From NCBI GenBank assembly GCA_000964245.1, contig LANB01000001.1, positions 1,700,392 through 1,764,391 of the forward strand: DNA of 64,000 bases. The letters run 5' to 3'. This DNA comes from Cellvibrionaceae bacterium 1162T.S.0a.05 (GTDB taxonomy: Bacteria > Pseudomonadota > Gammaproteobacteria > Pseudomonadales > Cellvibrionaceae). A program made the translations under genes and the position numbers. A model generated the notes under the pieces. It was not told the DNA's origin, searched no databases, and saw nothing but the letters and a program-made list of their open reading frames with translations. Below, piece after piece: positions 25,923 through 39,392 of the stretch (the stretch's first letter is position 1; each line of letters opens with the position of its first letter).

Positions 25923-27023
25923 TTAATTTATTCGATTATGTGGATATTCGTCTGCGAGTTGTTTTTGTTTTTCGCTCACAGTTTTATTGTCAGTAGACCA
26001 TCCTTGAAGATTTTCTTCTATCAAGGATTTTAGAAAAGCAATGTGTTCGGGGCGATCATTCAATGCGGCAATATATTCATAGCTCTCACCGCCGGCTTCA
26101 ATAAAATAGTCTCGATTCTCTTCACCAATTTCTTCAATGGTTTCCAGGCAGTCGGCAGAAAAACCCGGGCAAATTAGCTGTACAGATTTGCAGCCCTCTG
26201 AAGCCAGGGTTTTTAACGTTTCATCTGTATAAGGTTGCAACCAGGCTTCACGGCCGAAGCGCGATTGAAAAGTTGTTATATATTCCTCTTTTTTCAGGCC
26301 TAGTTTTTCAGCAACCATGCGTGTCGTGCGCAAGCATTGACAGTGGTAGGGATCACCGGCGTGCAGATAGCGCAAGGGTACACCATGGTAGGTGAATACT
26401 AATTTTTCAGCGCGGCTGTGGCTTTGCCAATGTTGCTCAATGCTTGAACACAGCGCTGCGATATATGCTGGGTGTGTGTGGTAGCTGTCTACAAAACGTA
26501 AGGCAGGCAGCCAGCGACGTGAAACAAAATCCTTGGCCACGGCGTCAAAAGTAGAGGCTGTTGTGCTTGCGGAATACTGAGGATACAGGGGCAAAACCAA
26601 TAATTTACGAACACCTTGTTCGAGCATGGCGTCAATGCGCTCGGCAATGGCCGGTTTTCCATAACGCATACCCCAGTCGATCAGAACACTTTCACCGAAT
26701 TCAGCACGGAGAGCATCTGCCTGCTTGCGTGTATTCTCCGCGAGAGGTGAGCCCAGAGCGGCATCTTCTGACCAAATACTCTGGTAGGCCTTGGCGGAAC
26801 GCGCGGGACGAAAAATAAGAATAATGCGCAAGATAAACCACCACAGAAGCCGGTTGACCTCAATCACGCGGGGATCTGAAAGGAATTCCTTCAGGTAGCG
26901 CCGAAGGGCCGGGGCAGTGGGGGCATCGGGTGTGCCGAGGTTGGTGATGAGGACCCCGATTCGGGGAGGTTCACTGTGATCAAACTGACTGCGTCCGGAA
27001 TATTTCACGACTTCTTGTCCCAA
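25923..27023 (-). CDS. hemH: Ferrochelatase
   Basis: N-terminal IGVLITNLGTPDAPTAPALRRYLKEFLSDPRVIEV is the ferrochelatase signature. 366 aa. Confidence 0.85.
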   Translation of the reverse strand: MGQEVVKYSGRSQFDHSEPPRIGVLITNLGTPDAPTAPALRRYLKEFLSDPRVIEVNRLLWWFILRIILIFRPARSAKAYQSIWSEDAALGSPLAENTRKQADALRAEFGESVLIDWGMRYGKPAIAERIDAMLEQGVRKLLVLPLYPQYSASTTASTFDAVAKDFVSRRWLPALRFVDSYHTHPAYIAALCSSIEQHWQSHSRAEKLVFTYHGVPLRYLHAGDPYHCQCLRTTRMVAEKLGLKKEEYITTFQSRFGREAWLQPYTDETLKTLASEGCKSVQLICPGFSADCLETIEEIGEENRDYFIEAGGESYEYIAALNDRPEHIAFLKSLIEENLQGWSTDNKTVSEKQKQLADEYPHNRIN

Positions 27024-27149: not shown

Positions 27150-27220
27150 CAAAATCCTGTTACATGTAATAAATTTGTTTTTGTTACATGTAAAACGCTT
27201 TACATATCACATGTAATAGA
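27150..27220 (+). promoter_or_regulatory. Three phased palindromic TTACATGTAA-type operator candidates upstream of the 27226 operon
   Basis: TTACATGTAA at 27160-27169 and 27184-27193, cACATGTAAt at 27208-27217, and a TTACATAT half-site at 27200. The spacing is about 24-25 bp, and the sites lie 20-75 bp upstream of the start codon. Confidence 0.45.
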
Positions 27221-27225
27221 TTAAA

Positions 27226-27876
27226 GTGGGCCTCATGAAAGCGAAGTCTTCAGCGCATTACCAAAGAGAATATCGTCGTCGTTTGCGCGAGCAGGGCCTT
27301 GTGAAAAAGGAAGTCTGGATTCGCCCTGAAAACGCGAAGCAGCTGGCCGTATTCGAAAAAATCCTGCGTGATGTCATCGAGACACCGCTGGACCCTAACA
27401 AACTGTTGCGTAAAGGAGAGCACACAATGACAGACTTGAAATGTTGGACGACAGACTCTCTCTACGAGGCCATGAAAGATGAAGAGTTGATTCTCAGTGG
27501 GCAGGCCTCGGTAGAACTTATAGGTGGCGTGCATCCAACCTTGCATATCGTGATGCATGAGTACGGGGATTTACCCCTTTTTATGACCGTAGCCGGGGAG
27601 CAGCTTGTCGTTGAAGCCGTACTGTGGTCAACAGAGGAAGTCAGCGATCTTGCGAAATTTAATGATGCTGTGCTGCGAACACACAAGTATTTTCCGCTGT
27701 CCACCATAAGCCTGGACACTCTGGGCGACGGCAAGGATTACTACCACATGTTTGGCGCCTTGAGCTCCGCCTCGATTTTGCCGAACGTGATTTTTGAAAT
27801 TGAAACACTCGCTGCCAATGTGATTCAGGCAACGGAAGCCTACAGCGATCTGTTAAACCCCGCCAAAGAAGCTTAG
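27226..27876 (+). CDS. Hypothetical protein. An N-terminal basic, probably DNA-binding segment is fused to a YjfI/DUF2170-like domain (assignment tentative).
   Basis: The N-terminus KSSAHYQREYRRRLREQGLVKKEVWIRPE resembles RHH/phage-repressor-like basic motifs. It is followed immediately by a PspA/IM30 gene, as in E. coli yjfI-yjfJ. The ATG at 27235 is an alternative start. Confidence 0.4.
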   Translation: MGLMKAKSSAHYQREYRRRLREQGLVKKEVWIRPENAKQLAVFEKILRDVIETPLDPNKLLRKGEHTMTDLKCWTTDSLYEAMKDEELILSGQASVELIGGVHPTLHIVMHEYGDLPLFMTVAGEQLVVEAVLWSTEEVSDLAKFNDAVLRTHKYFPLSTISLDTLGDGKDYYHMFGALSSASILPNVIFEIETLAANVIQATEAYSDLLNPAKEA

Positions 27877-27892: not shown

Positions 27893-28576
27893 ATGAATAT
27901 CTGGGCGAAAATGATGACCGCTTTGCGCGGAGGCATTAACGAAGCCGGCGAAGCCATCGTCGACACGCAAGCCTTGCGCATTTTGGACCAGGAAGTCCGT
28001 GAGGCTACGGATGAGCTTGAGCAATCCAGGGATGGTTTGGCGGCAATTTTGGCTCGCCAAAAACTGGCCGAAGAAAAAGCGGCAAGTTTAAAAAAACAAA
28101 TTGGTGAATACGAAGGCTATGCCACCCAGGCGCTGGAAAAAGGTGACGACGCGCTTGCGCTTGAAGTCGCGCAGAAAATTGCCGACCTGGAGAACCAATT
28201 GCAAACTGAAAATGATGCGGCTGCGGGTTTTGCTGACAGTGCGAAGGATTTACGTTCCGCTATCAAGCAGGCAGAGAGCAATATCAAACGTATCAAGCAG
28301 CAAATCGATACAGTCAAAGCCAAGGAAAGTGTGCAAAAAGCACAAACGGCGGTTGCCGAAAGGCACAGTGGTTCCAATTCAAAAATGCGCACGGCGATGG
28401 ATTCACTGGAGCGCATTAAGGAAAAGCAAGCACTTAAAGATGCGCAAATAAAAGCGGCTGCTGAAATGTCACGTGAAAAAGGTGATGACAGCCTGCAAAC
28501 AAAACTGGAAGAAGCCGGGATCGCACCGACGGGTAAAAAAGCACAAGAGGTGCTGGACCGACTGAAAAAGAAATAG
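27893..28576 (+). CDS. PspA/IM30-family protein (YjfJ-like)
   Basis: The MNIWAKMMTALRGGINEAGEAIVD N-terminus and the long coiled coil (227 aa) are typical of PspA/Vipp1/YjfJ. Confidence 0.8.
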   Translation: MNIWAKMMTALRGGINEAGEAIVDTQALRILDQEVREATDELEQSRDGLAAILARQKLAEEKAASLKKQIGEYEGYATQALEKGDDALALEVAQKIADLENQLQTENDAAAGFADSAKDLRSAIKQAESNIKRIKQQIDTVKAKESVQKAQTAVAERHSGSNSKMRTAMDSLERIKEKQALKDAQIKAAAEMSREKGDDSLQTKLEEAGIAPTGKKAQEVLDRLKKK

Positions 28577-28759: not shown

Positions 28760-28972
28760 ATGGATCGTTTTGAAAAAATTGCCTACAGCATTCTCTTTAT
28801 TCTCGCCGTCTTATACGGGCTCGCTTTGATTGTTGGCATGATGGCCGCTTTCCCTTTCGGTCTGCTTGGTCTGGCTGCAATGGTGGCTTTTGGCTTGCTC
28901 TTTATCAAAGTGCTGTGTGAGCGCATGAATAGCAAGGAAGACGATTATTACGATAAGCACGTGGAGAAATAG
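28760..28972 (+). CDS. Small two-TM membrane protein
   Basis: 70 aa with two hydrophobic helices. It is stop/start adjacent to the ybjQ-like gene (28972/28974). Confidence 0.4.
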   Translation: MDRFEKIAYSILFILAVLYGLALIVGMMAAFPFGLLGLAAMVAFGLLFIKVLCERMNSKEDDYYDKHVEK

Positions 28973-28973
28973 C

Positions 28974-29288
28974 ATGATTATCACCACCCAGGATCGCATT
29001 GAAGAAAAAGAAATCGTTGAAACGCTCGGTCTTGTTCGGGGAAATACAATTCGGGCAAGGCACATTGGTAAGGATATTCTCGCGGGGCTGCGCACTATCG
29101 TCGGTGGTGAAATCAGTGAATACACCAAAATGCTGGCGGAAGCGCGTGAACAGGCCATTGACCGCATGACGGAAGAAGCAAGGAAGTTAGGTGCTGACGC
29201 GATTGTATGTTTACGTTTTACGACGTCGCCGGTTCTACAAGGCGCGGCGGAACTTCTAGCCTATGGAACAGCTGTAAAATTAAATTAA
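28974..29288 (+). CDS. YbjQ/UPF0145 (DUF74) family protein
   Basis: 104 aa; the EIVETLGLVRGNTIRARHIGKDILAGLRTIVGGEI core is typical of YbjQ. Confidence 0.75.
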   Translation: MIITTQDRIEEKEIVETLGLVRGNTIRARHIGKDILAGLRTIVGGEISEYTKMLAEAREQAIDRMTEEARKLGADAIVCLRFTTSPVLQGAAELLAYGTAVKLN

Positions 29289-29341
29289 GTTTGCTGGCTT
29301 AAGCTTCCATAGCTAAGTAATGACAGATACAGGAGCATCCC

Positions 29342-30283
29342 ATGTTTAATCTCATTCTAATTTTTATATTATTTGTATTGTCAGTGCTTAGCGTGACGAA
29401 AATAGCGAGCGCTGTACAGGAAAAAGAAGCCGCACCCGTGTTTAGATACGGAGGCTATTTAGGTCTGGCAGCAGCGACAGTGTGGTTGGCATTCAGCTGT
29501 GTGATGACCGTGCCTGCAGGCCACGTCAAAGTGGCTACGCTCTTTGGTAAAGTACTTGATAATACCTATAAAGAAGGGTTTCATGTCGTCAATCCGCTAC
29601 TCGACTTTACGGTATTTGACCTCCGCCAAAAAACGCATAAAGAAACGGCAGGCATTCCTGCTGAGGATAAGTTGATTACCCGTATGGATGTGTCTGTGCA
29701 ATATCGAACTATCGGTAGCATGGCACCAGACATACTGAGAAACACCGGTACGACAGAATCACTTATCCAGGTTCATATGATTCCCAAGTTGCGTTCAATC
29801 TTGAGAGAGCAGGGTAAAGGAGTGCCGATGTCACAGGATTTTTTCAAGGAGTCGATTCAAAGACAGCTACAAGAGAGTTTACAAGTTGGCTTGGCGGATT
29901 TTCTTGCGGATAAAGGTATTCAGGTTGAGACTGTGCTTATTCGTGAAGTGCAACTGCCAGAAGTGATTCGCACGGCGATTACCGAAACCAAAAAACGTGA
30001 ACAGGAAGTATTAAAGCAGCAAGCAGAATTGGAGCGTTTCGCGACAGAGCAAGATCAGAAAGTGAAACAAGCCGAATCAGAGTTAAAAGCTGCGAAGCTT
30101 GAAGCTCAGAAAATCAAGGAGTTAGCTGATGCTGAAGCCTACAAAATCAAGGTGATTAACGAAACCCTGGCGAAATCACCTAACTACATTGAATTAAAGC
30201 GTGTTGAGCAATGGAATGGCGTTCTGCCAGTATACGCAGGCGGAGAAAACATCCCGATGATTGACTTAAGAAAACCACGCTAA
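29342..30283 (+). CDS. SPFH/band-7 (prohibitin-like) membrane protein
   Basis: N-terminal TM helix, then the SPFH core (VPAGHVKVATLFGKV...FHVVNPLLDFTVFDLRQ) and a C-terminal coiled coil. Confidence 0.8.
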   Translation: MFNLILIFILFVLSVLSVTKIASAVQEKEAAPVFRYGGYLGLAAATVWLAFSCVMTVPAGHVKVATLFGKVLDNTYKEGFHVVNPLLDFTVFDLRQKTHKETAGIPAEDKLITRMDVSVQYRTIGSMAPDILRNTGTTESLIQVHMIPKLRSILREQGKGVPMSQDFFKESIQRQLQESLQVGLADFLADKGIQVETVLIREVQLPEVIRTAITETKKREQEVLKQQAELERFATEQDQKVKQAESELKAAKLEAQKIKELADAEAYKIKVINETLAKSPNYIELKRVEQWNGVLPVYAGGENIPMIDLRKPR

Positions 30284-30336: not shown

Positions 30337-31023
30337 ATGTTTGCAATTCTCGTCACTGACAAAATGGATGTGTTCTACGGAAACATTACCAGCTTCCCCA
30401 CGGTCGTTTTCACCGTTTTACTTTTGTTTTGTTTTCTCTATTGGTTGGTTGCCGTCATTGGTTTGATCGACTTTGATTTTCTTGATTTCGATTTGCCGTC
30501 CGATGATATTGACCTGGGTGGAAACGATAGCCTCGAAAACGTGAATGTGCTGGCGGGCTTGCTGTTAAGGTTGGGCTTAAACGGTGTTCCCTTTCCCATT
30601 GTTTTTTCTATCATAACCATTATTGGCTGGCTAATCTGCTACTACGCGGTGTACTTTATTTTTCCGCTTGTGCCGGGCAGTGTACTCGAGTTTCTGGTCG
30701 GTATACCCATTCTTATAGCAACGTTTTATTTCAGTGCGTTAATTACCGGGAAAATCATTAAGCCACTCAAGTCTATATTTCGAGCTGCCAATCAGGAAGT
30801 TCAGAAAACCATCCTGGGAAAAGTTGCCATTGTTCGTACAGCAAGAGTGGATGCAGATTTTGGTGAAGCGGTTGTGGAAGATGGGGGTGCAGGTCTCATA
30901 GTGAAGGTAAGGCCGTACAAAAAACAAACCTTTACGCGCGGCGACCGTGTTGTATTACTGGAACACGTACGGGAAGAAAATATTTATAAAGTGATATCAG
31001 AACAAGAATTTAGCGATTCTTAA
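30337..31023 (+). CDS. NfeD/YqiJ-like membrane protein with a C-terminal OB-fold (flotillin partner)
   Basis: Multi-TM N-terminal half with an acidic DFDFLDFDLPSDDIDLGG loop. The C-terminal GKVAIVRTARVDADFGEAVVEDGGAGLIVKVRP is an NfeD-type OB fold. It sits immediately upstream of flotillin, as yqiJ does with yqiK. Confidence 0.6.
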   Translation: MFAILVTDKMDVFYGNITSFPTVVFTVLLLFCFLYWLVAVIGLIDFDFLDFDLPSDDIDLGGNDSLENVNVLAGLLLRLGLNGVPFPIVFSIITIIGWLICYYAVYFIFPLVPGSVLEFLVGIPILIATFYFSALITGKIIKPLKSIFRAANQEVQKTILGKVAIVRTARVDADFGEAVVEDGGAGLIVKVRPYKKQTFTRGDRVVLLEHVREENIYKVISEQEFSDS

Positions 31024-31036
31024 AAGGAGAAAAGAA

Positions 31037-32965
31037 ATGTCAGAATATATTGGCGCATTGGGAGGCATAATGGTGGCGGTTTTTGCCATCTTTATATTTC
31101 TCGTGGTTGTGGCTGCGCTGTTTAAATCTTTCTATGTAAAGGTTGAGCAGGGCACCGCGTTAATTAAAAACGACCTTAGCACTCGTCCAAAAGTGTTTTT
31201 TACTGGTGCCTGGATTATTCCTGTCATCCATAAAAAGGAATTAATGCGTATCTCCTTGATTACCATGGAGGTCGATCGGCGAGGTAAAGATGGCTTGATC
31301 TGTAAGGACAATATGCGGGCGGATATCACGGTTGCGTTTTACCTGCGAGTCAATGAAACACCTGAAGATGTACTCAAAGTCGCCAAGTCACTCGGCTCCA
31401 GTCGCGCATCAAATAAAGATGCCGTAAATGAACTCTTCAATGCCAAATTTTCTGAGGCGTTGAAAACAGTGGGTAAGCGCTTTGACTTTGTGAACCTTTT
31501 TGAAAATCGTCAGGAGTTTCGCGACGCGATCATCGAAGTTATCGGCAACGACTTGAACGGTTACGTACTGGAAGACGTTGCAATTGATTATCTGGAGCAA
31601 ACGCCAAAAGTCTCACTGGACCCAAGCAATATTCTTGATGCAGAGGGTATTCGCAAGATCACTGAACTGACAGCGACTCAAAATGTACAAACCAATAATT
31701 ATGAGCGTGACGAAGAGCTCGCAATTAAGAAGAAAAACGTAGAAACCGTTGAAGCGATGCTGGAACTCGAACGCCAGCAGGCAGATGCGGAAGCCAAACA
31801 GCAACGTGAAATTGCCACCATTCAAGCGCGAGAAGAAGCGGAAACCATTAAAGTTCAGGAAGAAGAACGCAAAAAATCCTCTTCAGCAACCATCCAGGTT
31901 GACCAGGATCTCGCCGTACAAAAAGAAAATCAACAGCGTGAAATCGAAGTGGCCGAACAAAATCGCCAACGTGCAGTGGTTATTGAGGTCGAAAAAGTCA
32001 CGCGCGCACGAGATCTTGAAATTGTCGCCCGTGAACGCGAGGTCGAACTGCAACGTATTGATGCAGAAAAAGCAGTTGAAGTTGAGAAGAAAGAAATTGC
32101 CAATGTCATTCGGGAACGTGTTGCGGTTGATAAAACGGTTGCGATTGAAGAAGAGCGTATCAAGGAAGTGCGTGAAGTGTCTGAAGCAGATCGCCTGAAG
32201 CAAACCCAGGTATTGGCAGCAGAAGCTAAAGCGGAAGAAGAGAAAGTTAAACGTGTGAAAGAAGCGGAAGCTGAAGAGATTGCAGCGAAGCATAAAGCGG
32301 TTGAGGTCACCACTATCGCGCAGGCCGATCTCGAAGCGGCTGCGAAAGAAGCCGATGCCAAGAAGAAACTTGCAGAAGGTGTACAGGCTGAACGTGCAGC
32401 GCCGGGGCTTGCGGATGCCAAAGTGCAGGAAGCTAAAGCGGATGCGCTAGAGAAAGAAGGCCTTGCTGAAGCGAAAGTGATTGCATCAAAAGGTCAGAGC
32501 GAAGCGGAAGTGATTGCTGCGAAAGGCGATGCCGAGGCGCGTGCTACGAAAGAAACAGGTCTTGCGGGTGCTGAAGTTATTCGTCAGAAGTTCAAAGCGG
32601 AAGCGGACGGCCTTGTAGATAAATTCGAAGCGATGGGCACTATGAGTGATCAGGCGCGTAATCACGAAGAATTCCGTATGGCGCTGGAAACAGCTCTCAA
32701 GGAAGCGCTGGCCTCGATTGAAGCGGGTAAGGAAATCGCGAAGGAAAATGCCGAAGTGCTGGCCACAGCGCTGCAAAAAGCGAAGATCGATATTGTCGGT
32801 GGAGAAGATCACTTCTTCGATAACTTTGCGAAATCGCTTTCCATTGGTAAAGCGGTCGACGGGTTGGCCAACAAGAGCAGCACGATTTCGACTTTGTTGG
32901 AAAAAGTGATGGCCTTCTCTGCGGGTGCGCAGGCTACGAAAAGCTCCGATTTGGAAACCCAATAA
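31037..32965 (+). CDS. Flotillin-family protein (YqiK-like)
   Basis: N-terminal TM and SPFH domain (VEQGTALIKNDLSTRPKVFFTGAWIIPVIHK...), then a very long E/A/K-rich coiled-coil tail. 642 aa. Confidence 0.85.
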   Translation: MSEYIGALGGIMVAVFAIFIFLVVVAALFKSFYVKVEQGTALIKNDLSTRPKVFFTGAWIIPVIHKKELMRISLITMEVDRRGKDGLICKDNMRADITVAFYLRVNETPEDVLKVAKSLGSSRASNKDAVNELFNAKFSEALKTVGKRFDFVNLFENRQEFRDAIIEVIGNDLNGYVLEDVAIDYLEQTPKVSLDPSNILDAEGIRKITELTATQNVQTNNYERDEELAIKKKNVETVEAMLELERQQADAEAKQQREIATIQAREEAETIKVQEEERKKSSSATIQVDQDLAVQKENQQREIEVAEQNRQRAVVIEVEKVTRARDLEIVAREREVELQRIDAEKAVEVEKKEIANVIRERVAVDKTVAIEEERIKEVREVSEADRLKQTQVLAAEAKAEEEKVKRVKEAEAEEIAAKHKAVEVTTIAQADLEAAAKEADAKKKLAEGVQAERAAPGLADAKVQEAKADALEKEGLAEAKVIASKGQSEAEVIAAKGDAEARATKETGLAGAEVIRQKFKAEADGLVDKFEAMGTMSDQARNHEEFRMALETALKEALASIEAGKEIAKENAEVLATALQKAKIDIVGGEDHFFDNFAKSLSIGKAVDGLANKSSTISTLLEKVMAFSAGAQATKSSDLETQ

Positions 32966-32996: not shown

Positions 32997-33488
32997 ATGA
33001 AAACTCTAGTGAAAATTAGCCTTTTACTCATTCTGTCAGTGCCGGTATTTGCTGCAGATAACGAAAAGGCCGCACGCGCCGAACTGGATAAAATGTTCGA
33101 ACTAACGAATATGACTGCAATGGTCGATCAAATGTACGCCCAAATTGGGAATATGTGGCAACAAATGGCGGCGCAGCAAAATATTCCTGCTGACAAAGCG
33201 GGTGTCACTAAAAAATATTTTGAGAGACTCGAAGCCATAATGCGTGAAGACATGAGCTGGGAAAAAATGAAAGAACCAATGATGCAGGTCTACATTCGCG
33301 CTTTCAGTCTTGAAGAAATAAAAGCCATGAATGAATTCTACGAAACACCGGCAGGTTCTGCGATGTTGAAAAAAATGCCCCAGGTCATGCAGGAAAGCAT
33401 GATGGTGGGTCAACAACTTGCACAAGCAATGATGCCTAAAATCCAGGCTTTATCGCAGGAAATGTCTGCCGAACTGCAAGCGAAATAA
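32997..33488 (+). CDS. Periplasmic DUF2059-like protein
   Basis: Signal peptide and Met/Gln-rich helices (FYETPAGSAMLKKMPQVMQESMM). Confidence 0.55.
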   Translation: MKTLVKISLLLILSVPVFAADNEKAARAELDKMFELTNMTAMVDQMYAQIGNMWQQMAAQQNIPADKAGVTKKYFERLEAIMREDMSWEKMKEPMMQVYIRAFSLEEIKAMNEFYETPAGSAMLKKMPQVMQESMMVGQQLAQAMMPKIQALSQEMSAELQAK

Positions 33489-33512
33489 AGTCAACAGAAA
33501 AAGGAAGCTCAG

Positions 33513-36500
33513 GTGTCAATAGAACGGGAAAGCGCACAAGTCGATCAAGCCGTTGCTGAAGGTGGCGCATACGAGGTTCTGCGCAAGCGCTTGCTTGAGC
33601 AGGGTACAGCGCTGGAGACTGCGATCAAAGCGCTCAATACAGCACGGCTGGATGAATTTGGTTCGTCAGATATGGAAGTCTGCGCGCGGGTTCGTATCCG
33701 CACGGAGAACAATTGTGTAGCGCGTGACATTGTCCAGGTTGGCCCTTTGCTTCTTTTTGGTTACAACGTTTTTATCGGTTTAAAAAAAGAAACACGCGTA
33801 GAGGATGTTTTTTCTGTTTTTTCACTAAAGGGTGAGGGAAAGGACCTGACGCTTGAAGAGGTCAAAGCAGAAAACTGCTTCCTGGCAAACAAGGCCTTCC
33901 GCAAAGACTTTAAAGAACTTTATCATTATTACAGCCAAACCAAATTGCTGGAGCTCACTGTCAAGGACGGCAAATTATTGATGGGCTTTCAAATCGGCGA
34001 GCGCCTGGAAGACCAGCGTGTTTTCCGTTGGGCATTTTCTCCAGACGGCACACAACTGGAATACATTGATAATCGCGGTGAGCGTGATATCGCGTTGCCA
34101 CCTTCCTATGATTTTGAATGGTTGAAACTCGGCCGTGACGATACCGTACATGGCAAACACGCGCATGTGAATGTGCTCGACAAGGTTTTTGTTGAAACAA
34201 CACGCGGCGATCTTACCATCAAAATTGAAAACAATACTGAAAGTGGATTGGGTATTTACAGCGAAGCGGTCGAAGAACCAAACCAATCCATAGACGACGC
34301 TGAATATTATTACGCTGCACTGGGGGATTTGATTCTTTTAAAAATCTTACCCTACAAAGAAGATCACTTCCGTTATTTTATTTTTAATACCCTAACGAAT
34401 GATATCCGCCGGCTTGATGCCATTGGCGGTTCTTGTGTGCAGCTCCCGGAAGATCACGGCGTGGTTTTTCCAGGTGGTTATTACTTGCAAAGTGGTGAAT
34501 ACAAAACCTTCGATAGCAATAGCGAAAACCTTCGTTTCAAACGGGTATTGAAATCGCCCAACGGCGAAGATGTACTTTACGTTTTCTACGAGCCTGAAAA
34601 GGGTATTTGCGGCCTGTTTGCTTACAACATGATCAATAAGAGCTTGCAAAACCCGATTTACGGGCATGGCTACGCGCTCAGAAACGACGGCAAGCTCATC
34701 ATATTTTCAGCCGAAAAAGAGGCGACACGTGTTCACCCCATGCAAATTTGGGAAACACCCTATTTCAGTGACGAGTACGCGAGCACCCAGCCCGCGAGTC
34801 AAAGTTACTATGGCCGTATTGGTAACGCTGCTCTGGTCCGAGGCATATCTGACGTTCTGTCTGTTGTCCGCATGATTAAAAACCAGAGTGTTAGCTCGCG
34901 GCTTTACGAAGAAATGGCCAGAGCCTCGCTCAAGGTGTTTGATGATCACTATTGGTTAGCGGAAGATGAATGTGCGGAAATTCAGGCACAGCTCAAAGAC
35001 ATTGCTTCGAGCGCCAATCTTGCAATTGATGAATTTGAGAAAGTCAAAAGCATTCAAAAACAAAGTGCACAGGCACTAAGAGAAGCGGATAGCAAACAGA
35101 AGGCGCTGGTATCGCGCATTCGCACAGCGAGTTGGGAAAATGCAGAAGACTATGTGAAAGCGCTCGATGAATGTCGCCACCAGCGTGGTCGTCTGGCAAC
35201 AATTAAAGATTACCGTTATATCGATCTCGAAAAAATCGGCGCGCTGGATGAAGAAATTGCTGAAGTCCAGGAGCAGCTTGGTGTTAAAACGATAGAATTT
35301 CTGAGCGCTGGCGATGCGCTAGCGCCCTACCTGGAAAAAATCAGTGGCATCGACAGTGAGGTGCAAGAAGCAGAAACGATTGCAACGCTAACCCCCTTGG
35401 TTGAGCAGATCGAAAACATTGCCTCTGGTCTGGACTTGCTGTCGGAATTACTTGCGAGCTTACAAGTTGGTGATACCACAGTACGCACCCGCATCGTCGA
35501 CAGCATCTCTGAAGTGTATGCGAAGCTGAACCAGAGTAAGGCGCAAGCACAACACAAGCAAAAAAATCTTGGCTCCGAAGAGGCCATCGCACAATTTGCC
35601 GCGCAATTTAAGTTGTTCTCACAAAGCATTACCAATGCCTTGGGTTTGGCAACAAGCCCGGAAGCTTGCGACGAGCAAATGTCGCGCTTGCTCATTCAGC
35701 TGGAAGAACTTGAAAGCCAATTCAGTGAATACGAACAATTCCTCGCAGATATTATGGAAAAGCGCGAGGAAATTTACGAAACCTTTGAAAGTCACAAGCA
35801 AAAATTGTTAGACGATTGTCAGCGGCGCGCGCAAGGCATTGCTGATGCGGCAGACAGGGTTCTGAGCAGTATTCAGCGGCGCAGCCAAAAATTTACCGAC
35901 CAGGATGAGCTCAATACCTATTTTGCTTCTGATGCTCTGGTGCTCAAGGTACGTGAATTCGTTGCGCAATTGCACAAACTGGATGCCAGTGTAAGCGCTG
36001 AAGACATCGATGCCCGTTTTAAAGCCCTGAAAGAACAAAGCATCCGAATTTTGCGTGATAAAAGTGATATTTACGAAGAGGGCGGTGCGGTTATCAAGTT
36101 GGGGCCGCGTCATAAATTTTCGGTGAATACCCAGGAGCTGGATCTCACCATCATACCCCGCAAAGATGCACTCTTTATTCATTTATCGGGAACAGATTAC
36201 TACCAGCGCATTGAGCATGAAGAGCTCAACGCGTTAAAACCCTGGTGGCATGTCAATCTGGAATCAGAAAGCGACGAGGTGTATCGCGCAGAATATCTGG
36301 CTGCCAGTATTTTGTGGGCAGCCCAATCCCGGCGCGATGATCTGGATATGGAGACCTTGCGTCTTGCCAGCTCAGACGACAAAGCGTTGAATAAACTTTG
36401 CCGAAATTTTGCCGCGCCACGCTACAAGGAAGGCTATGAAAAAGGCATACACGACCACGATGCTGCGCGGATTCTTTCTGCTCTTATTCCTGCAATGGAA

Positions 36501-38831
36501 AGTGCAGACTTGCTGCGTTTTGATCCGCAATGCCGGGGTTTTGCTCAGGTATTTTGGGCAAACATTGAAAGAATTTCGGCAGAACTAAAGAACAAACGCC
36601 TCACGTTTGAGACCTGGGTTGAGCGCGCGCAATCAGCACATCAGATGCAAGCTCAGCTACAAAGCCGCGACGCCGCTGAATTGCTCGCAGAAGAAGTGTT
36701 TGCAGCAATGCAGGAGTTTATCGCCTATCACCCCTTTGACCTCAGCGAACTGGAGTTAAAACGTGCTGCTGATTATCTTGTGGCTGAGTTGGGCGAGGAC
36801 CGACCGCAATTTGTTGGCTCAAAATATGCGAGAACACTGGCAGATGAATTAAAACGCTCATTGAATGATGAAAGCTGGCGGCAATTTCAAACCGCACTGA
36901 AGAAAATGCAGGGTTGGCCAGCAGAACGTTGGAAGCTCAGTTGTGCCTGGTTGAAAGCGATGGTCAAGGAGCGGAACCTGGAATCCTTGATGCGCTATGT
37001 CCCCGAAGCGGCAGCACTGATCAATGCAGACGAACGGATCGAACGACGCCCCTCGGAAGTGGATTTGGAATTAAATGTTGAAAAGCTCCTTGGGGATCAC
37101 AAACGTATCCAGAACCAATGTTTGCAACTAGGCGTCGATGAATTCCTTTTGCGTATGCACAAACATCGCAATGAATTTATTCCATCCTACCAGCGCTTTC
37201 ATCACTTGCGTCAGCGCATTGCCGATGAACAAAAGGCCCGCTTGCGCTTGCAGGAATTCAAAGCCAGGCCCTTGAGCTCGTTCGTACGCAACAAACTGAT
37301 TAACGAAGCCTACCTGCCTATTATTGGCGACAACCTGGCAAAACAAATGGGAACGGTCGGCGACAGTAAGCGCACGGATTTGATGGGCTTATTAATGATG
37401 ATCTCGCCTCCCGGCTACGGTAAAACCACATTAATGGAATATGTGGCGAGCCGCCTGGGATTGATATTCATGAAAATAAATTGCCCGGCCCTTGGACATG
37501 ATGTGCTATCACTGGACCCACAACAAGCGCCAAACGCAACGGCGGCTCAGGAGTTGAACAAACTCAATCTGGGTCTTGAAATGGGCAACAATGTCATGCT
37601 GTATCTGGATGATATTCAACATACTCATCCGGAATTTCTGCAAAAATTTATTTCTCTTTGCGATGGTACGCGCCGTATAGAAGGGGTATGGGACGGTCAA
37701 ACAAAAACCTACGATATGCGTGGCAAAAAATTCTGCGTTGTTATGGCCGGTAACCCCTACACCGAGTCTGGGGAAGTGTTCAAAATTCCGGACATGTTGG
37801 CTAACCGCGCCGACATTTATAATCTTGGTGATATTCTGGGCGGCATGGATGAGGCGTTCGCACTCAGTTATGTGGAGAACAGCCTAACATCAAACTCCGT
37901 GCTCGCGCCTCTCGCGACTCGGGATTTGAAAGACGTGTACCTTTTTGCGCGCATGGCACAAGGTGAAGATGTCGCGACCACAGATCTGAGCCATCAGTAT
38001 TCAGCGGCAGAAATCGGTGAAATTGTCGATGTCCTGAAAAAACTTTTCATGATTCGCGATGTCGTGTTGAAAATTAATCAACAATACATCGCCTCCGCAG
38101 CACAAGCGGACAAGTATCGCGTAGAGCCGCCCTTTAAACTGCAAGGTAGCTATCGCAACATGAATAAAATGGCAGAAAAGGTTTCTGCCATCATGAATGA
38201 AAAAGAACTTCAACAACTTATTGAAGATCATTACCTCGGTGAAGCACAGTTATTAACAACAGGTGCCGAAGAAAACCTGTTGAAACTGATGGAATTGCGC
38301 GGCGTTCTTCAAGGTGAAAAAGCGCAACGTTGGCAAGCCATTAAGAAAGATTTCTTGCGCGTTAAATCTCTTGGTGGAGACGACGCAGATACCGGAACCA
38401 AAATCATAACGCAGCTCGGCGTGTTGGGTGAAAGCTTGAATAGCATTGCTGTGGCTACCCAGCGAGCGGGCAAGGATTTTGGTAAGGCGGTGAGTAAAAC
38501 AGACAAAAGTCGTGATCATGCTGCTATGGATTCAAGAGTGGCGGACGCATTACTCGCCTTAAAATCCGTAATCGAGAAAATTGAATCAACAACAAAAAAT
38601 ACGCCACCTCCCAAGGTTGAAGTTATCAATCAACCCGTACCTGGCGTTGATAAAATATTGAGAGTGTTGGCAAAAACTATCGAAGGAACAATCTTTCCAC
38701 TGGTTCGCAGTATGGATAAGAAGCTGGAAATCGACCTGCGAACCCATGAAAAAATGTCTGAAGTTTCGAACCAACTCAGAGAACTGGAAAAGGAAGTTCG
38801 TACAGGTAGTTTTGAAAAAGGTCAGTCCTGA
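33513..38831 (+). CDS. Giant (1772 aa) protein with an N-terminal beta-rich domain, a long coiled coil and a C-terminal MoxR/AAA_5-like ATPase domain
   Basis: GTG start with an AGGAAG RBS. Walker A MMISPPGYGKTTLM, Walker B MLYLDDIQH and the MoxR-like sensor block VVMAGNPYTESGEVFKIPDMLANRADIYNLGD are present. About 600 aa of heptad-rich helix precede the ATPase. Confidence 0.8.
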   Translation: MSIERESAQVDQAVAEGGAYEVLRKRLLEQGTALETAIKALNTARLDEFGSSDMEVCARVRIRTENNCVARDIVQVGPLLLFGYNVFIGLKKETRVEDVFSVFSLKGEGKDLTLEEVKAENCFLANKAFRKDFKELYHYYSQTKLLELTVKDGKLLMGFQIGERLEDQRVFRWAFSPDGTQLEYIDNRGERDIALPPSYDFEWLKLGRDDTVHGKHAHVNVLDKVFVETTRGDLTIKIENNTESGLGIYSEAVEEPNQSIDDAEYYYAALGDLILLKILPYKEDHFRYFIFNTLTNDIRRLDAIGGSCVQLPEDHGVVFPGGYYLQSGEYKTFDSNSENLRFKRVLKSPNGEDVLYVFYEPEKGICGLFAYNMINKSLQNPIYGHGYALRNDGKLIIFSAEKEATRVHPMQIWETPYFSDEYASTQPASQSYYGRIGNAALVRGISDVLSVVRMIKNQSVSSRLYEEMARASLKVFDDHYWLAEDECAEIQAQLKDIASSANLAIDEFEKVKSIQKQSAQALREADSKQKALVSRIRTASWENAEDYVKALDECRHQRGRLATIKDYRYIDLEKIGALDEEIAEVQEQLGVKTIEFLSAGDALAPYLEKISGIDSEVQEAETIATLTPLVEQIENIASGLDLLSELLASLQVGDTTVRTRIVDSISEVYAKLNQSKAQAQHKQKNLGSEEAIAQFAAQFKLFSQSITNALGLATSPEACDEQMSRLLIQLEELESQFSEYEQFLADIMEKREEIYETFESHKQKLLDDCQRRAQGIADAADRVLSSIQRRSQKFTDQDELNTYFASDALVLKVREFVAQLHKLDASVSAEDIDARFKALKEQSIRILRDKSDIYEEGGAVIKLGPRHKFSVNTQELDLTIIPRKDALFIHLSGTDYYQRIEHEELNALKPWWHVNLESESDEVYRAEYLAASILWAAQSRRDDLDMETLRLASSDDKALNKLCRNFAAPRYKEGYEKGIHDHDAARILSALIPAMESADLLRFDPQCRGFAQVFWANIERISAELKNKRLTFETWVERAQSAHQMQAQLQSRDAAELLAEEVFAAMQEFIAYHPFDLSELELKRAADYLVAELGEDRPQFVGSKYARTLADELKRSLNDESWRQFQTALKKMQGWPAERWKLSCAWLKAMVKERNLESLMRYVPEAAALINADERIERRPSEVDLELNVEKLLGDHKRIQNQCLQLGVDEFLLRMHKHRNEFIPSYQRFHHLRQRIADEQKARLRLQEFKARPLSSFVRNKLINEAYLPIIGDNLAKQMGTVGDSKRTDLMGLLMMISPPGYGKTTLMEYVASRLGLIFMKINCPALGHDVLSLDPQQAPNATAAQELNKLNLGLEMGNNVMLYLDDIQHTHPEFLQKFISLCDGTRRIEGVWDGQTKTYDMRGKKFCVVMAGNPYTESGEVFKIPDMLANRADIYNLGDILGGMDEAFALSYVENSLTSNSVLAPLATRDLKDVYLFARMAQGEDVATTDLSHQYSAAEIGEIVDVLKKLFMIRDVVLKINQQYIASAAQADKYRVEPPFKLQGSYRNMNKMAEKVSAIMNEKELQQLIEDHYLGEAQLLTTGAEENLLKLMELRGVLQGEKAQRWQAIKKDFLRVKSLGGDDADTGTKIITQLGVLGESLNSIAVATQRAGKDFGKAVSKTDKSRDHAAMDSRVADALLALKSVIEKIESTTKNTPPPKVEVINQPVPGVDKILRVLAKTIEGTIFPLVRSMDKKLEIDLRTHEKMSEVSNQLRELEKEVRTGSFEKGQS

Positions 38832-38834
38832 TCT

Positions 38835-39392
38835 ATGGCCAGCGAGAGTATAGTTGCGCGCGTAAAATTGCTGTTCAGCTTATGCATGTTTCTGATTCTG
38901 GTTCATGCAGCGAATGTGTTTCTACAAGGCTATTTACTGCAATTCGGCATTTTACCGCGGGAACCCACTAGCCTGCCTTTTATATTCACCACCGTATTTA
39001 TTCATGGGTCCTGGGCGCATTTATTTAACAACCTCTTCGGCCTTGTAATTTTTGGTTCGCTTTGTCTTTTGCGCGGTCGCCGATATTTCATTAACGCCAG
39101 CCTCTTTATTATTGTAGTCGGTGGGCTACTGGTATGGGCGTTTGGTCGGCCAGCAATACACATCGGTGCGAGTGGATGGATATTTGGCTTGTGGAGTTTA
39201 AGTATTGCTCTTGCCTGGTACCAAAAAAGCTTTATCAACTTCGCTATAGCGGTGCTTGTTCTATTTTTTTATGGCGGGATGATATACGGCGTACTGCCAG
39301 CGGATAAAGCGATTTCATTTGAAGCGCACCTGGCGGGCGCCTTCGCAGGCATTCTATGTGCTGCAAATAGCAGAACACGAAAAATACGGTAA
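38835..39392 (+). CDS. Rhomboid-family intramembrane serine protease
   Basis: GASGWIFGL (GxSG) and AHLAGAFAGIL (catalytic His helix) with 6 TM helices. The start lies 4 nt after the giant ORF stop. Confidence 0.8.
   Translation: MASESIVARVKLLFSLCMFLILVHAANVFLQGYLLQFGILPREPTSLPFIFTTVFIHGSWAHLFNNLFGLVIFGSLCLLRGRRYFINASLFIIVVGGLLVWAFGRPAIHIGASGWIFGLWSLSIALAWYQKSFINFAIAVLVLFFYGGMIYGVLPADKAISFEAHLAGAFAGILCAANSRTRKIR

Follow-up and report, generated by a model that had tools for sequence, protein, structure and literature searches.

We analyzed a 64,000-nucleotide stretch of the genome of Cellvibrionaceae bacterium 1162T.S.0a.05 (contig LANB01000001.1, positions 1,700,392 to 1,764,391; referred to as the window), in which three short palindromes lie in the gap separating hemH, a minus-strand gene that ends at 27023, from bacA, the first gene on the plus strand. 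This gene opens the bac ("biofilm-associated cluster", bacABCDEF) operon, which has been described in P. aeruginosa (Mace 2008, Wallart 2024; PMC2587700, PMC10948618) and which in the window contains three additional inserted genes. We consider it highly likely that BacA is the autorepressor of the bac operon and that the palindromes, named O1 to O3 here, are its operators. A sequence-only reading of the same DNA had proposed an autoregulatory repressor/operator pair in control of a membrane-scaffold operon; our comparative data strongly support this proposal, and it agrees with the derepression reported for P. aeruginosa (PMC10948618). The elements of the promoter region and the long form of the first gene are as follows:

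27160–27169, no strand assigned: putative operator O3 (distal), exact TTACATGTAA
27184–27193, no strand assigned: putative operator O2, exact TTACATGTAA; ends 5 nt 5' of the −35 box
27199–27204, plus strand: −35 hexamer TTTACA from a consensus scan; TTGACA in most relatives
27207–27216, no strand assigned: putative operator O1, TCACATGTAA, 9/10 match; inside the 17-nt spacer between −35 and −10
27222–27227, plus strand: −10 hexamer TAAAGT from a consensus scan; ends 7 nt before the ATG at 27235
27235–27876, plus strand: long ORF of bacA, 213 aa, comprising N-terminal module, linker and DUF2170 domain
27235–27369, plus strand: N-terminal module (N-module), aa 1–45 (MKAKSSAHYQREYRRRLREQGLVKKEVWIRPENAKQLAVFEKILR), proposed DNA-binding and dimerization module
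27445–27849, plus strand: DUF2170 domain, aa 71–205 (Pfam PF09938, E = 2.3e-49)

Both exact copies of TTACATGTAA that had been noted at 27160 and 27184 are present and are the sole exact copies in the 64-kb window, where 0.04 copies are expected; none of 100 shuffles gave two. The palindrome observation is confirmed and lies far beyond chance. A third copy exists as well, but the 8/10 match placed at 27209 was two bases out of register with TCACATGTAA at 27207–27216, which matches at 9 of 10 positions. The regular spacing also held, with start-to-start distances of 24 and 23 bp instead of the 24–25 bp given before. A supposed half-site TTACATAT at 27200 is more plausibly the −35 hexamer TTTACA (27199–27204), which reads TTGACA in relatives. 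When up to two mismatches were allowed, we found 26 matches to TTACATGTAA in the whole window versus 31 expected. Since there is no enrichment at this level, the signal is a local cluster.

We then scanned one genome per species and obtained 80 loci with relatives of BacA (54–73% identity) from Cellvibrionaceae, Hahella, Oleispira, Oleiphilaceae, Methylococcales, Thiotrichaceae and others. Nearly all of them carry two to four copies of TTACATGTAA or of the variants TCACATGTAA and TTACATGTGA within 100 bp 5' of bacA, TCACATGTAA being one of just two common site variants. The upstream regions of the 80 loci (8,063 bp) contain 134 exact sites and 54 sites with one mismatch; in all other DNA of these loci (642,114 bp) there are no exact and 10 one-mismatch sites. 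Relative to the bacA ATG the sites keep to about −27, −50 and −72, and the start-to-start spacing is mostly 22–24 bp. An equivalent of O1 (−25 to −29) was found in 75 of 82 loci, an equivalent of O2 (−47 to −53) in 78 and an equivalent of O3 (about −63 to −83) in 39. The logo of 193 sites reads t-A-T-[T/c]-A-C-A-T-G-T-[A/g]-A-T-a, and the operator consensus is tATTACATGTAATa. Within the palindrome variation is confined to the symmetry-related positions 2 and 9, as expected for binding by a two-fold symmetric dimer. Five loci of the Hahella group and a few others (L015, L018, L032, L034, L043) have kept the sites 5' of the −35 box and have no site in the spacer; regulation may differ there.

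The gene upstream of the sites is not conserved, the largest cluster of upstream neighbors comprising 5 of 74 loci. hemH is the divergent neighbor in only 4 of the 80 loci, three of which are Agarilytica loci, and its predicted promoter in the window (27066–27039, minus strand) is about 95 bp away from the nearest palindrome. We therefore rejected the earlier suggestion that the palindromes also control hemH.

The sites are also in fixed register with the promoter. The consensus scan found a sigma-70-type promoter (TTTACA, 17-nt spacer, TAAAGT) directly before bacA, and the palindromes lie over its core, O1 within the spacer and O2 next to the −35 box. In the relatives the −50 and −27 sites flank TTGACA, and downstream of the −27 site comes a TAnnnT box. 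Of the 76 loci with a located −10 box, 66 have a −35 hexamer that matches at 4 or more of 6 positions and a spacer of 16–18 nt. The gap between the −10 box and the ATG measures 6–7 nt in 61 of 82 loci, and a Shine-Dalgarno-like motif precedes the main ATG in just 4 of 77. Because of these two properties the long bacA mRNA is probably leaderless or near-leaderless, judging from the transcription start that the boxes predict.

The N-terminal part of BacA is clearly coding. The ATG at 27235 and the N-terminal sequence are as quoted in the sequence-only reading. BacA matches the NCBIfam model NF050185 "biofilm formation regulator BacA" with 316.4 bits (curated cut-off 300) over residues 1–208, aligned to model positions 1–203 of 206, and Pfam recognizes only DUF2170 in the 213-aa product. 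Residues 1–45 are the most conserved part of BacA and nearly invariant; they are followed by a linker variable in both length and sequence. Codon-position entropies in the N-module are 0.62, 0.39 and 1.44 bits for positions 1, 2 and 3, which is a coding signature. None of 82 loci has an in-frame stop; the other two frames contain stops in 81 and 76 loci. An untranslated region or a separate gene in place of the N-terminal part was rejected on these grounds. In bacA loci the N-module is always fused to DUF2170.

With regard to the type of this module, a ribbon-helix-helix (RHH) or phage-repressor-type N-terminus had been suggested. AlphaFold2 predicted a helix at residues 6–19, an unstructured stretch at 20–30 (VKKEVWI) and a second helix at 31–45; the segment 22–29 is unstructured or strand-like, VKKEVWI being probably a strand that needs a partner. 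No RHH or helix-turn-helix model of Pfam or NCBIfam matched the N-module at E-values up to 10. Since the predicted order differs from strand-helix-helix and no RHH model matches, an RHH or phage-repressor fold is not supported; the module appears to be remotely related to PF11455 instead, as described below. We also searched the PDB with profiles of the BacA module, of the stand-alone relatives and of the PF11455 antitoxins, and obtained chance-level matches only, which are leads at most. These include residues 22–45 (27298–27369; VEVW.P....L...E) against the C-terminal segment of KorA/TrfB (E = 0.17; 7bca, 7bbq) and the helix-GL-strand segment against ribosomal protein uL30 (E = 0.045).

That the module reads the motif is supported most strongly by the fact that the motif follows it across unrelated operons. 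A profile of the BacA N-module was searched against 1.84 billion representative proteins and gave only 158 matches, which are either BacA proteins or stand-alone proteins of 44–80 aa. Out of 27 stand-alone proteins 13 match PF11455 "Antitoxin MazE-like" (best E = 9e-6) and 20 match NCBIfam UrfF "plasmid repression protein F". Aligned by hhalign with five PF11455 antitoxins, the stand-alone proteins reached a probability of 95.7% (E = 8.8e-9) and the BacA module, linked transitively over about 30 columns, one of 75.9% (E = 2.3e-5). The aligned part consists of the basic helix, Gly-Leu and the strand (R..LR..GL....W.P).

We also approached the question from the DNA side and scanned metagenome contigs by pattern alone, two exact palindromes 11–15 nt apart, which gave at least 120 loci. 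Among those listed, 11 are bacA promoters. A further five listed loci are GC-rich (56–67% GC; L085, L086, L107, L125, L159) and carry a tandem GTTACATGTAAC directly 5' of a PF11455 antitoxin gene (E = 1e-23 to 1e-30), which is followed by a PemK/MazF toxin gene. In a protein-first sample, a tblastn search with a PF11455 antitoxin yielded 326 plasmid records, 12 diverse ones of which (L214–L225) were examined. In 8 of the 12 antitoxin genes GTT[A/G/T]CATGTAAC is located at −23 to −35. Exact GTTACATGTAAC at −26 to −30 occurs in four genes, and GTTGCATGTAAC at −54 to −59 in three; a second GTTGCATGTAAC copy at −23 to −29 is found in Aeromonas pRAS3.2 and Xanthomonas pXCV38, and Halomonas has GTTACATGAAAC there. 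The Xylella promoter carries the one-mismatch variant GTTTCATGTAAC and the Polaromonas promoter the weaker variant GTTGTATGTAAC, while three of the 12 genes are without palindrome; the Bradyrhizobium plasmid locus (L225) has GTAGCGCGCAAC twice instead. Judging from these sequences GTT[A/G]CATGTAAC, often doubled, looks like the operator of the PF11455 antitoxin family. In type II toxin-antitoxin systems it is well established that the antitoxin represses its own promoter by binding to palindromes there.

Conversely, two DUF2170 genes that lack the module, E. coli yjfI and the gene of Pseudomonas sp. DG56-2, have no site within one mismatch. The latter (L084 3001–4250) encodes a short BacA of 149 aa without N-module and without palindromes; its PspA gene is split into ORFs of 133 and 142 aa, and the locus may be in decay. 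Phage-like contigs (L211–L213) encode P0324, a stand-alone module relative of 45 aa, and have a single exact TTACATGTAA (L211 722–731) about 58 bp 5' of the small-gene cluster that holds it, which is suggestive. Viral contigs scanned for the tandem motif gave six loci, none with a related gene. Literature searches on UrfF, DUF3018, PF11455, autoregulation of the pRAS3 toxin-antitoxin system and the motif returned nothing relevant.

BacA and the MazE-like (DUF3018) antitoxins of PF11455 appear to have in common the N-terminal basic helix, the Gly-Leu and the strand, and the antitoxin promoters contain the same palindrome core as bac in one or two copies 21–31 bp apart. Presumably the logic is the same too, with the N-terminus on the operator and the C-terminus on a partner. 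BacA differs in that it scores below the Pfam threshold, that a linker and DUF2170 replace the toxin-binding tail, and that it is paired with a PspA-like protein instead of an RNase toxin and would control a membrane-stress operon. No PemK/MazF toxin gene is located next to bacA in the window, where the downstream gene encodes a PspA/IM30 protein.

The P. aeruginosa locus (L082), retrieved via a 206-aa RefSeq-style protein, allows a comparison with published data. Its promoter reads TTACATGTGA, gctg, TTGAAA, tc, TTACATGTGA, tctcg, TAGTGT, gagtcc, ATG; the layout is thus unchanged in a genome of 66% GC. It resembles the window in the full-length family match, the operator/promoter layout and the core order bacA, PspA-like bacB, membrane protein, flotillin-like protein and DUF3686 ATPase; the window operon has in addition a small membrane protein, YbjQ and an SPFH protein. 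In a P. aeruginosa bacA::MAR2xT7 mutant BacB to BacF accumulate 6- to 13-fold (PMC10948618), and the literature reports negative control of the operon by BacA, as proposed here for the window. The published picture differs in that BacA is treated as a short 16-kDa protein, for which regulation by protein-protein contacts and a sigma-54 promoter have been proposed. The crystal structure 8q8o of P. aeruginosa BacA begins at the residue equivalent to 66 of the window protein, and PA3732 has been described as a 16-kDa protein; the literature has therefore used a short BacA without the N-terminal 60–65 residues. 8q8o and the annotation of PA3732 / PA14_16140 (L082 5950–6185) both start at an internal Met and are without the conserved N-module, and so is the published 478-bp bacA "gene region". 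We found no description of the N-module, the palindromic operators, the sigma-70 promoter or the two starts in the literature searched.

The DUF2170 domain of the window shares 48% identity with 8q8o (phmmer E = 2.4e-38) and a Foldseek target-normalized TM-score of 0.94–0.97. The next Foldseek matches are YbjN, SigE and ExsC, i.e. the fold of type III secretion system (T3SS) chaperones and YbjN-like proteins. In the 8q8o crystal the domain forms chaperone-type dimers. An interaction of BacA with BacB has been predicted by AlphaFold2 with a probability of 0.981 (PMC13092808), and BacB (PA3731) rises on osmotic shock. The CesT-CsrA complex (5z38) is among the structural neighbors of DUF2170; together with the listing of PA3732 as an RsmA target this may be coincidence or a lead to binding of RsmA/CsrA by DUF2170 proteins.

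From these elements we propose the following mechanism. A sigma-70 promoter would drive bacA, bacB, the membrane and flotillin-like genes and probably the genes for the large AAA ATPase and the rhomboid protein. Full-length BacA would be the repressor, its N-module (basic helix, short strand, helix) binding each tATTACATGTAATa site as a dimer. BacA on O1 in the spacer and on O2 at the −35 box would exclude RNA polymerase, and O3 would contribute cooperativity from a position two helical turns farther 5'. The DUF2170 domain would supply dimerization and bind the PspA-like BacB. This coupling could let membrane stress control repression, with BacB moving to stressed membranes and thereby shifting expression of the operon. 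That BacB binding modulates repression is probable by analogy with antitoxin/toxin co-repression and with PspF/PspA.

E. coli PspF-PspA is similar in that a PspA/IM30 effector is encoded together with the regulator of its own operon and is predicted to bind that regulator, which could couple membrane state to transcription. PspF, however, is a sigma-54 enhancer-binding activator inhibited by PspA, whereas the bac regulator would be a small sigma-70 repressor with an antitoxin-type module. ExsC/ExsD/ExsA, T3SS chaperones of the CesT type and YbjN/AmyR share the fold of DUF2170 and regulation via partner binding; the chaperones and YbjN/AmyR have no DNA-binding domain of their own, in contrast to the proposed one fused to BacA. 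As a kind of system an autoregulated operon is ordinary; this regulator is absent from the literature searched and corrects the published picture of BacA.

Several points weigh against BacA as the autorepressor. We infer its binding to the palindromes from sequence comparison, as we do the sign of the BacB effect, the cooperativity and the transcription start. Homology between module and PF11455 is transitive, since the direct score of the window module is below the Pfam threshold (12.8 bits, gathering 22; E = 0.12; residues 11–29 only). The AlphaFold2 monomer is without the expected strand, and residues 23–28 have a pLDDT below 50 in the full-length model. No solved relative of the module was found in the PDB profile searches or by Foldseek with the monomer model. 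The published "delta-bacA" strain is a transposon insertion, and an outward transposon promoter could raise downstream expression. The motif count in the source organism covers the 64-kb window. Finally, unrelated low-GC lineages have tandem TTACATGTAA too, there forming a different element, and about 100 of the listed metagenome motif matches adjoin no related gene. The 10-mer alone is therefore not diagnostic across all bacteria; this caution does not bear on the bacA genomes, because their flanking DNA is motif-free. The low-GC contigs (L087–L204, e.g. L092, L095, L098, L113, L121, L131) carry paired 14-bp CTTTACATGTAAAG copies 7–9 nt apart, mostly after genes and with no BacA-type gene nearby, apparently a separate REP-like or terminator-like element.

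Among the alternatives, the palindromes might be operators of a regulator encoded elsewhere, in which case the N-module would bind RNA or membrane or would serve oligomerization only. This would fit a module without a solved relative and an inferred BacA-DNA contact, and the weak similarity of residues 22–45 to the C-terminal strand-helix of KorA hints at a role in dimerization. We regard it as unlikely, as the sites travel with the module in three gene contexts unrelated to each other (bacA operons, PF11455/PemK pairs and the phage-like cluster), are absent where DUF2170 occurs without the module, and have no other gene conserved beside them. Another alternative keeps BacA as the binding protein and makes it mainly an activator, or a dual regulator acting via O2 and O3. 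O2 abuts the −35 box like the sites of class II activators, and the Hahella-group loci keep O2/O3 without O1. Considering that in 75 of 82 loci O1 falls within a spacer of the standard 17 nt, that good −35 and −10 boxes need no activator, and that the P. aeruginosa bacA mutant over-produces the downstream proteins, activation appears distinctly improbable.

A psp-like sigma-54 regulon, in which an enhancer-binding protein would use the palindromes as its upstream activating sites, has a precedent in the putative RpoN site proposed upstream of PA3732 (PMC2587700; PMC10948618). That proposal was built on the short gene annotation. We found no plus-strand match to the element TGGCAC-N5-TTGCW (−24 GG / −12 GC) in the window or in P. 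aeruginosa, nor is a GG-N10-GC conserved across the relatives, where the best score was at most 8/11 in 81 of 82 loci scanned. What is conserved instead is TTGACA, 17 nt and TAnnnT, overlapped by the palindromes, and no gene for an enhancer-binding protein is conserved nearby. A psp-type promoter was rejected on the lack of a conserved −24/−12 element, and we give this alternative very little weight. Least credible of all, to the point of being negligible, is a generic REP-like or terminator-like intergenic repeat with no regulatory role. The paired CTTTACATGTAAAG copies after genes in many unrelated places of low-GC metagenome contigs would speak for it. The palindromes of bacA, in contrast, have no further exact copies in the window and none in the 642 kb flanking bacA in 80 genomes, which led us to reject a dispersed repeat; they are in fixed register with the promoter boxes and the ATG, and the window scan showed no T-runs following them.

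In addition to the start at 27235 the long ORF contains a probable second, internal start:

27413–27418, plus strand: internal ribosome-binding site AAGGAG, with GGAG at 27415–27418
27427–27429, plus strand: internal in-frame ATG (Met65), probable start of a short isoform with DUF2170 only

In 72 of 77 loci GGAG precedes the internal ATG by 7–9 nt, though the protein sequence of the linker is variable. Since both GGAG and the Met are conserved in a variable linker, an abundant short isoform without N-module is predicted, and by its sequence this would be the protein that has been annotated and crystallized. PA3732 appears in a list of RsmA targets, and several binding sites surround its Shine-Dalgarno sequence (PMC4066749); this sequence would be the internal site. 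As a more tentative proposal, one that we put forward as possible and would hesitate to back, one frame might encode two proteins: a scarce leaderless long repressor and a short form made from the efficient internal start, which titrates the long form or BacB. The short form would have the DUF2170 dimer interface and the surface that binds BacB in common with the long form and could compete in this way. The locus might then act as a ratio-sensing membrane-stress switch, tuned in Pseudomonas by RsmA at the internal site. Repressors translated from leaderless mRNAs include lambda cI from PRM and tetR of Tn1721, and an in-frame isoform devoid of the DNA-binding domain is represented by Tn5 Inh versus Tnp; the likeness of bacA to these cases is one of sequence.

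Publications describe BacA as a "possible regulator", by no known mechanism, of a biofilm and virulence operon of P. aeruginosa that encodes a PspA-like effector. If our interpretation is correct, the mechanism of bac is a classical operator-repressor circuit whose DNA-binding domain escaped notice because annotation and crystallization both used the internal start. A sigma-70 promoter would replace the proposed sigma-54 control, and tATTACATGTAATa would supply the exact operator. It would further assign a DNA target to the uncharacterized PF11455 antitoxin family, which is present on hundreds of plasmids, and would mean that a toxin-antitoxin DNA-binding module, fused to a T3SS-chaperone fold, has been recruited to PspA/flotillin control in many Gammaproteobacteria.

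The remainder of the operon in the window is composed as follows:

27893–28576, plus strand: bacB, PspA/IM30 family (Pfam PF04012, E = 6e-45); after bacA in 80 of 80 loci
28760–30283, plus strand: insertion of three genes, the first for a 70-aa membrane protein
28974–29288, plus strand: YbjQ, inserted
29342–30283, plus strand: SPFH/Band 7 protein, inserted
30337–31023, plus strand: bacC-like 228-aa membrane protein
31037–32965, plus strand: bacD-like 642-aa flotillin-like protein
within 32997–39392, plus strand: DUF2059 protein, probable distal part of the operon
33513–38831, plus strand: 1772-aa DUF3686/AAA ATPase, BacE-like
38835–39392, plus strand: rhomboid protein

The order bacA, bacB, bacC-like and bacD-like is kept in 77 of 80 loci and matches the P. 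aeruginosa locus. The genes for the DUF2059 protein, the ATPase and the rhomboid protein are the probable distal part of the operon because they share its strand and are separated by short gaps; in P. aeruginosa a DUF3686 protein is encoded at the equivalent place. The inserted genes are present in only 2–3 of the 80 related loci (Agarilytica). Common to the Agarilytica loci alone (L055, L072, L073) are parts of the insertion, namely the small membrane protein and/or YbjQ and not the SPFH gene.

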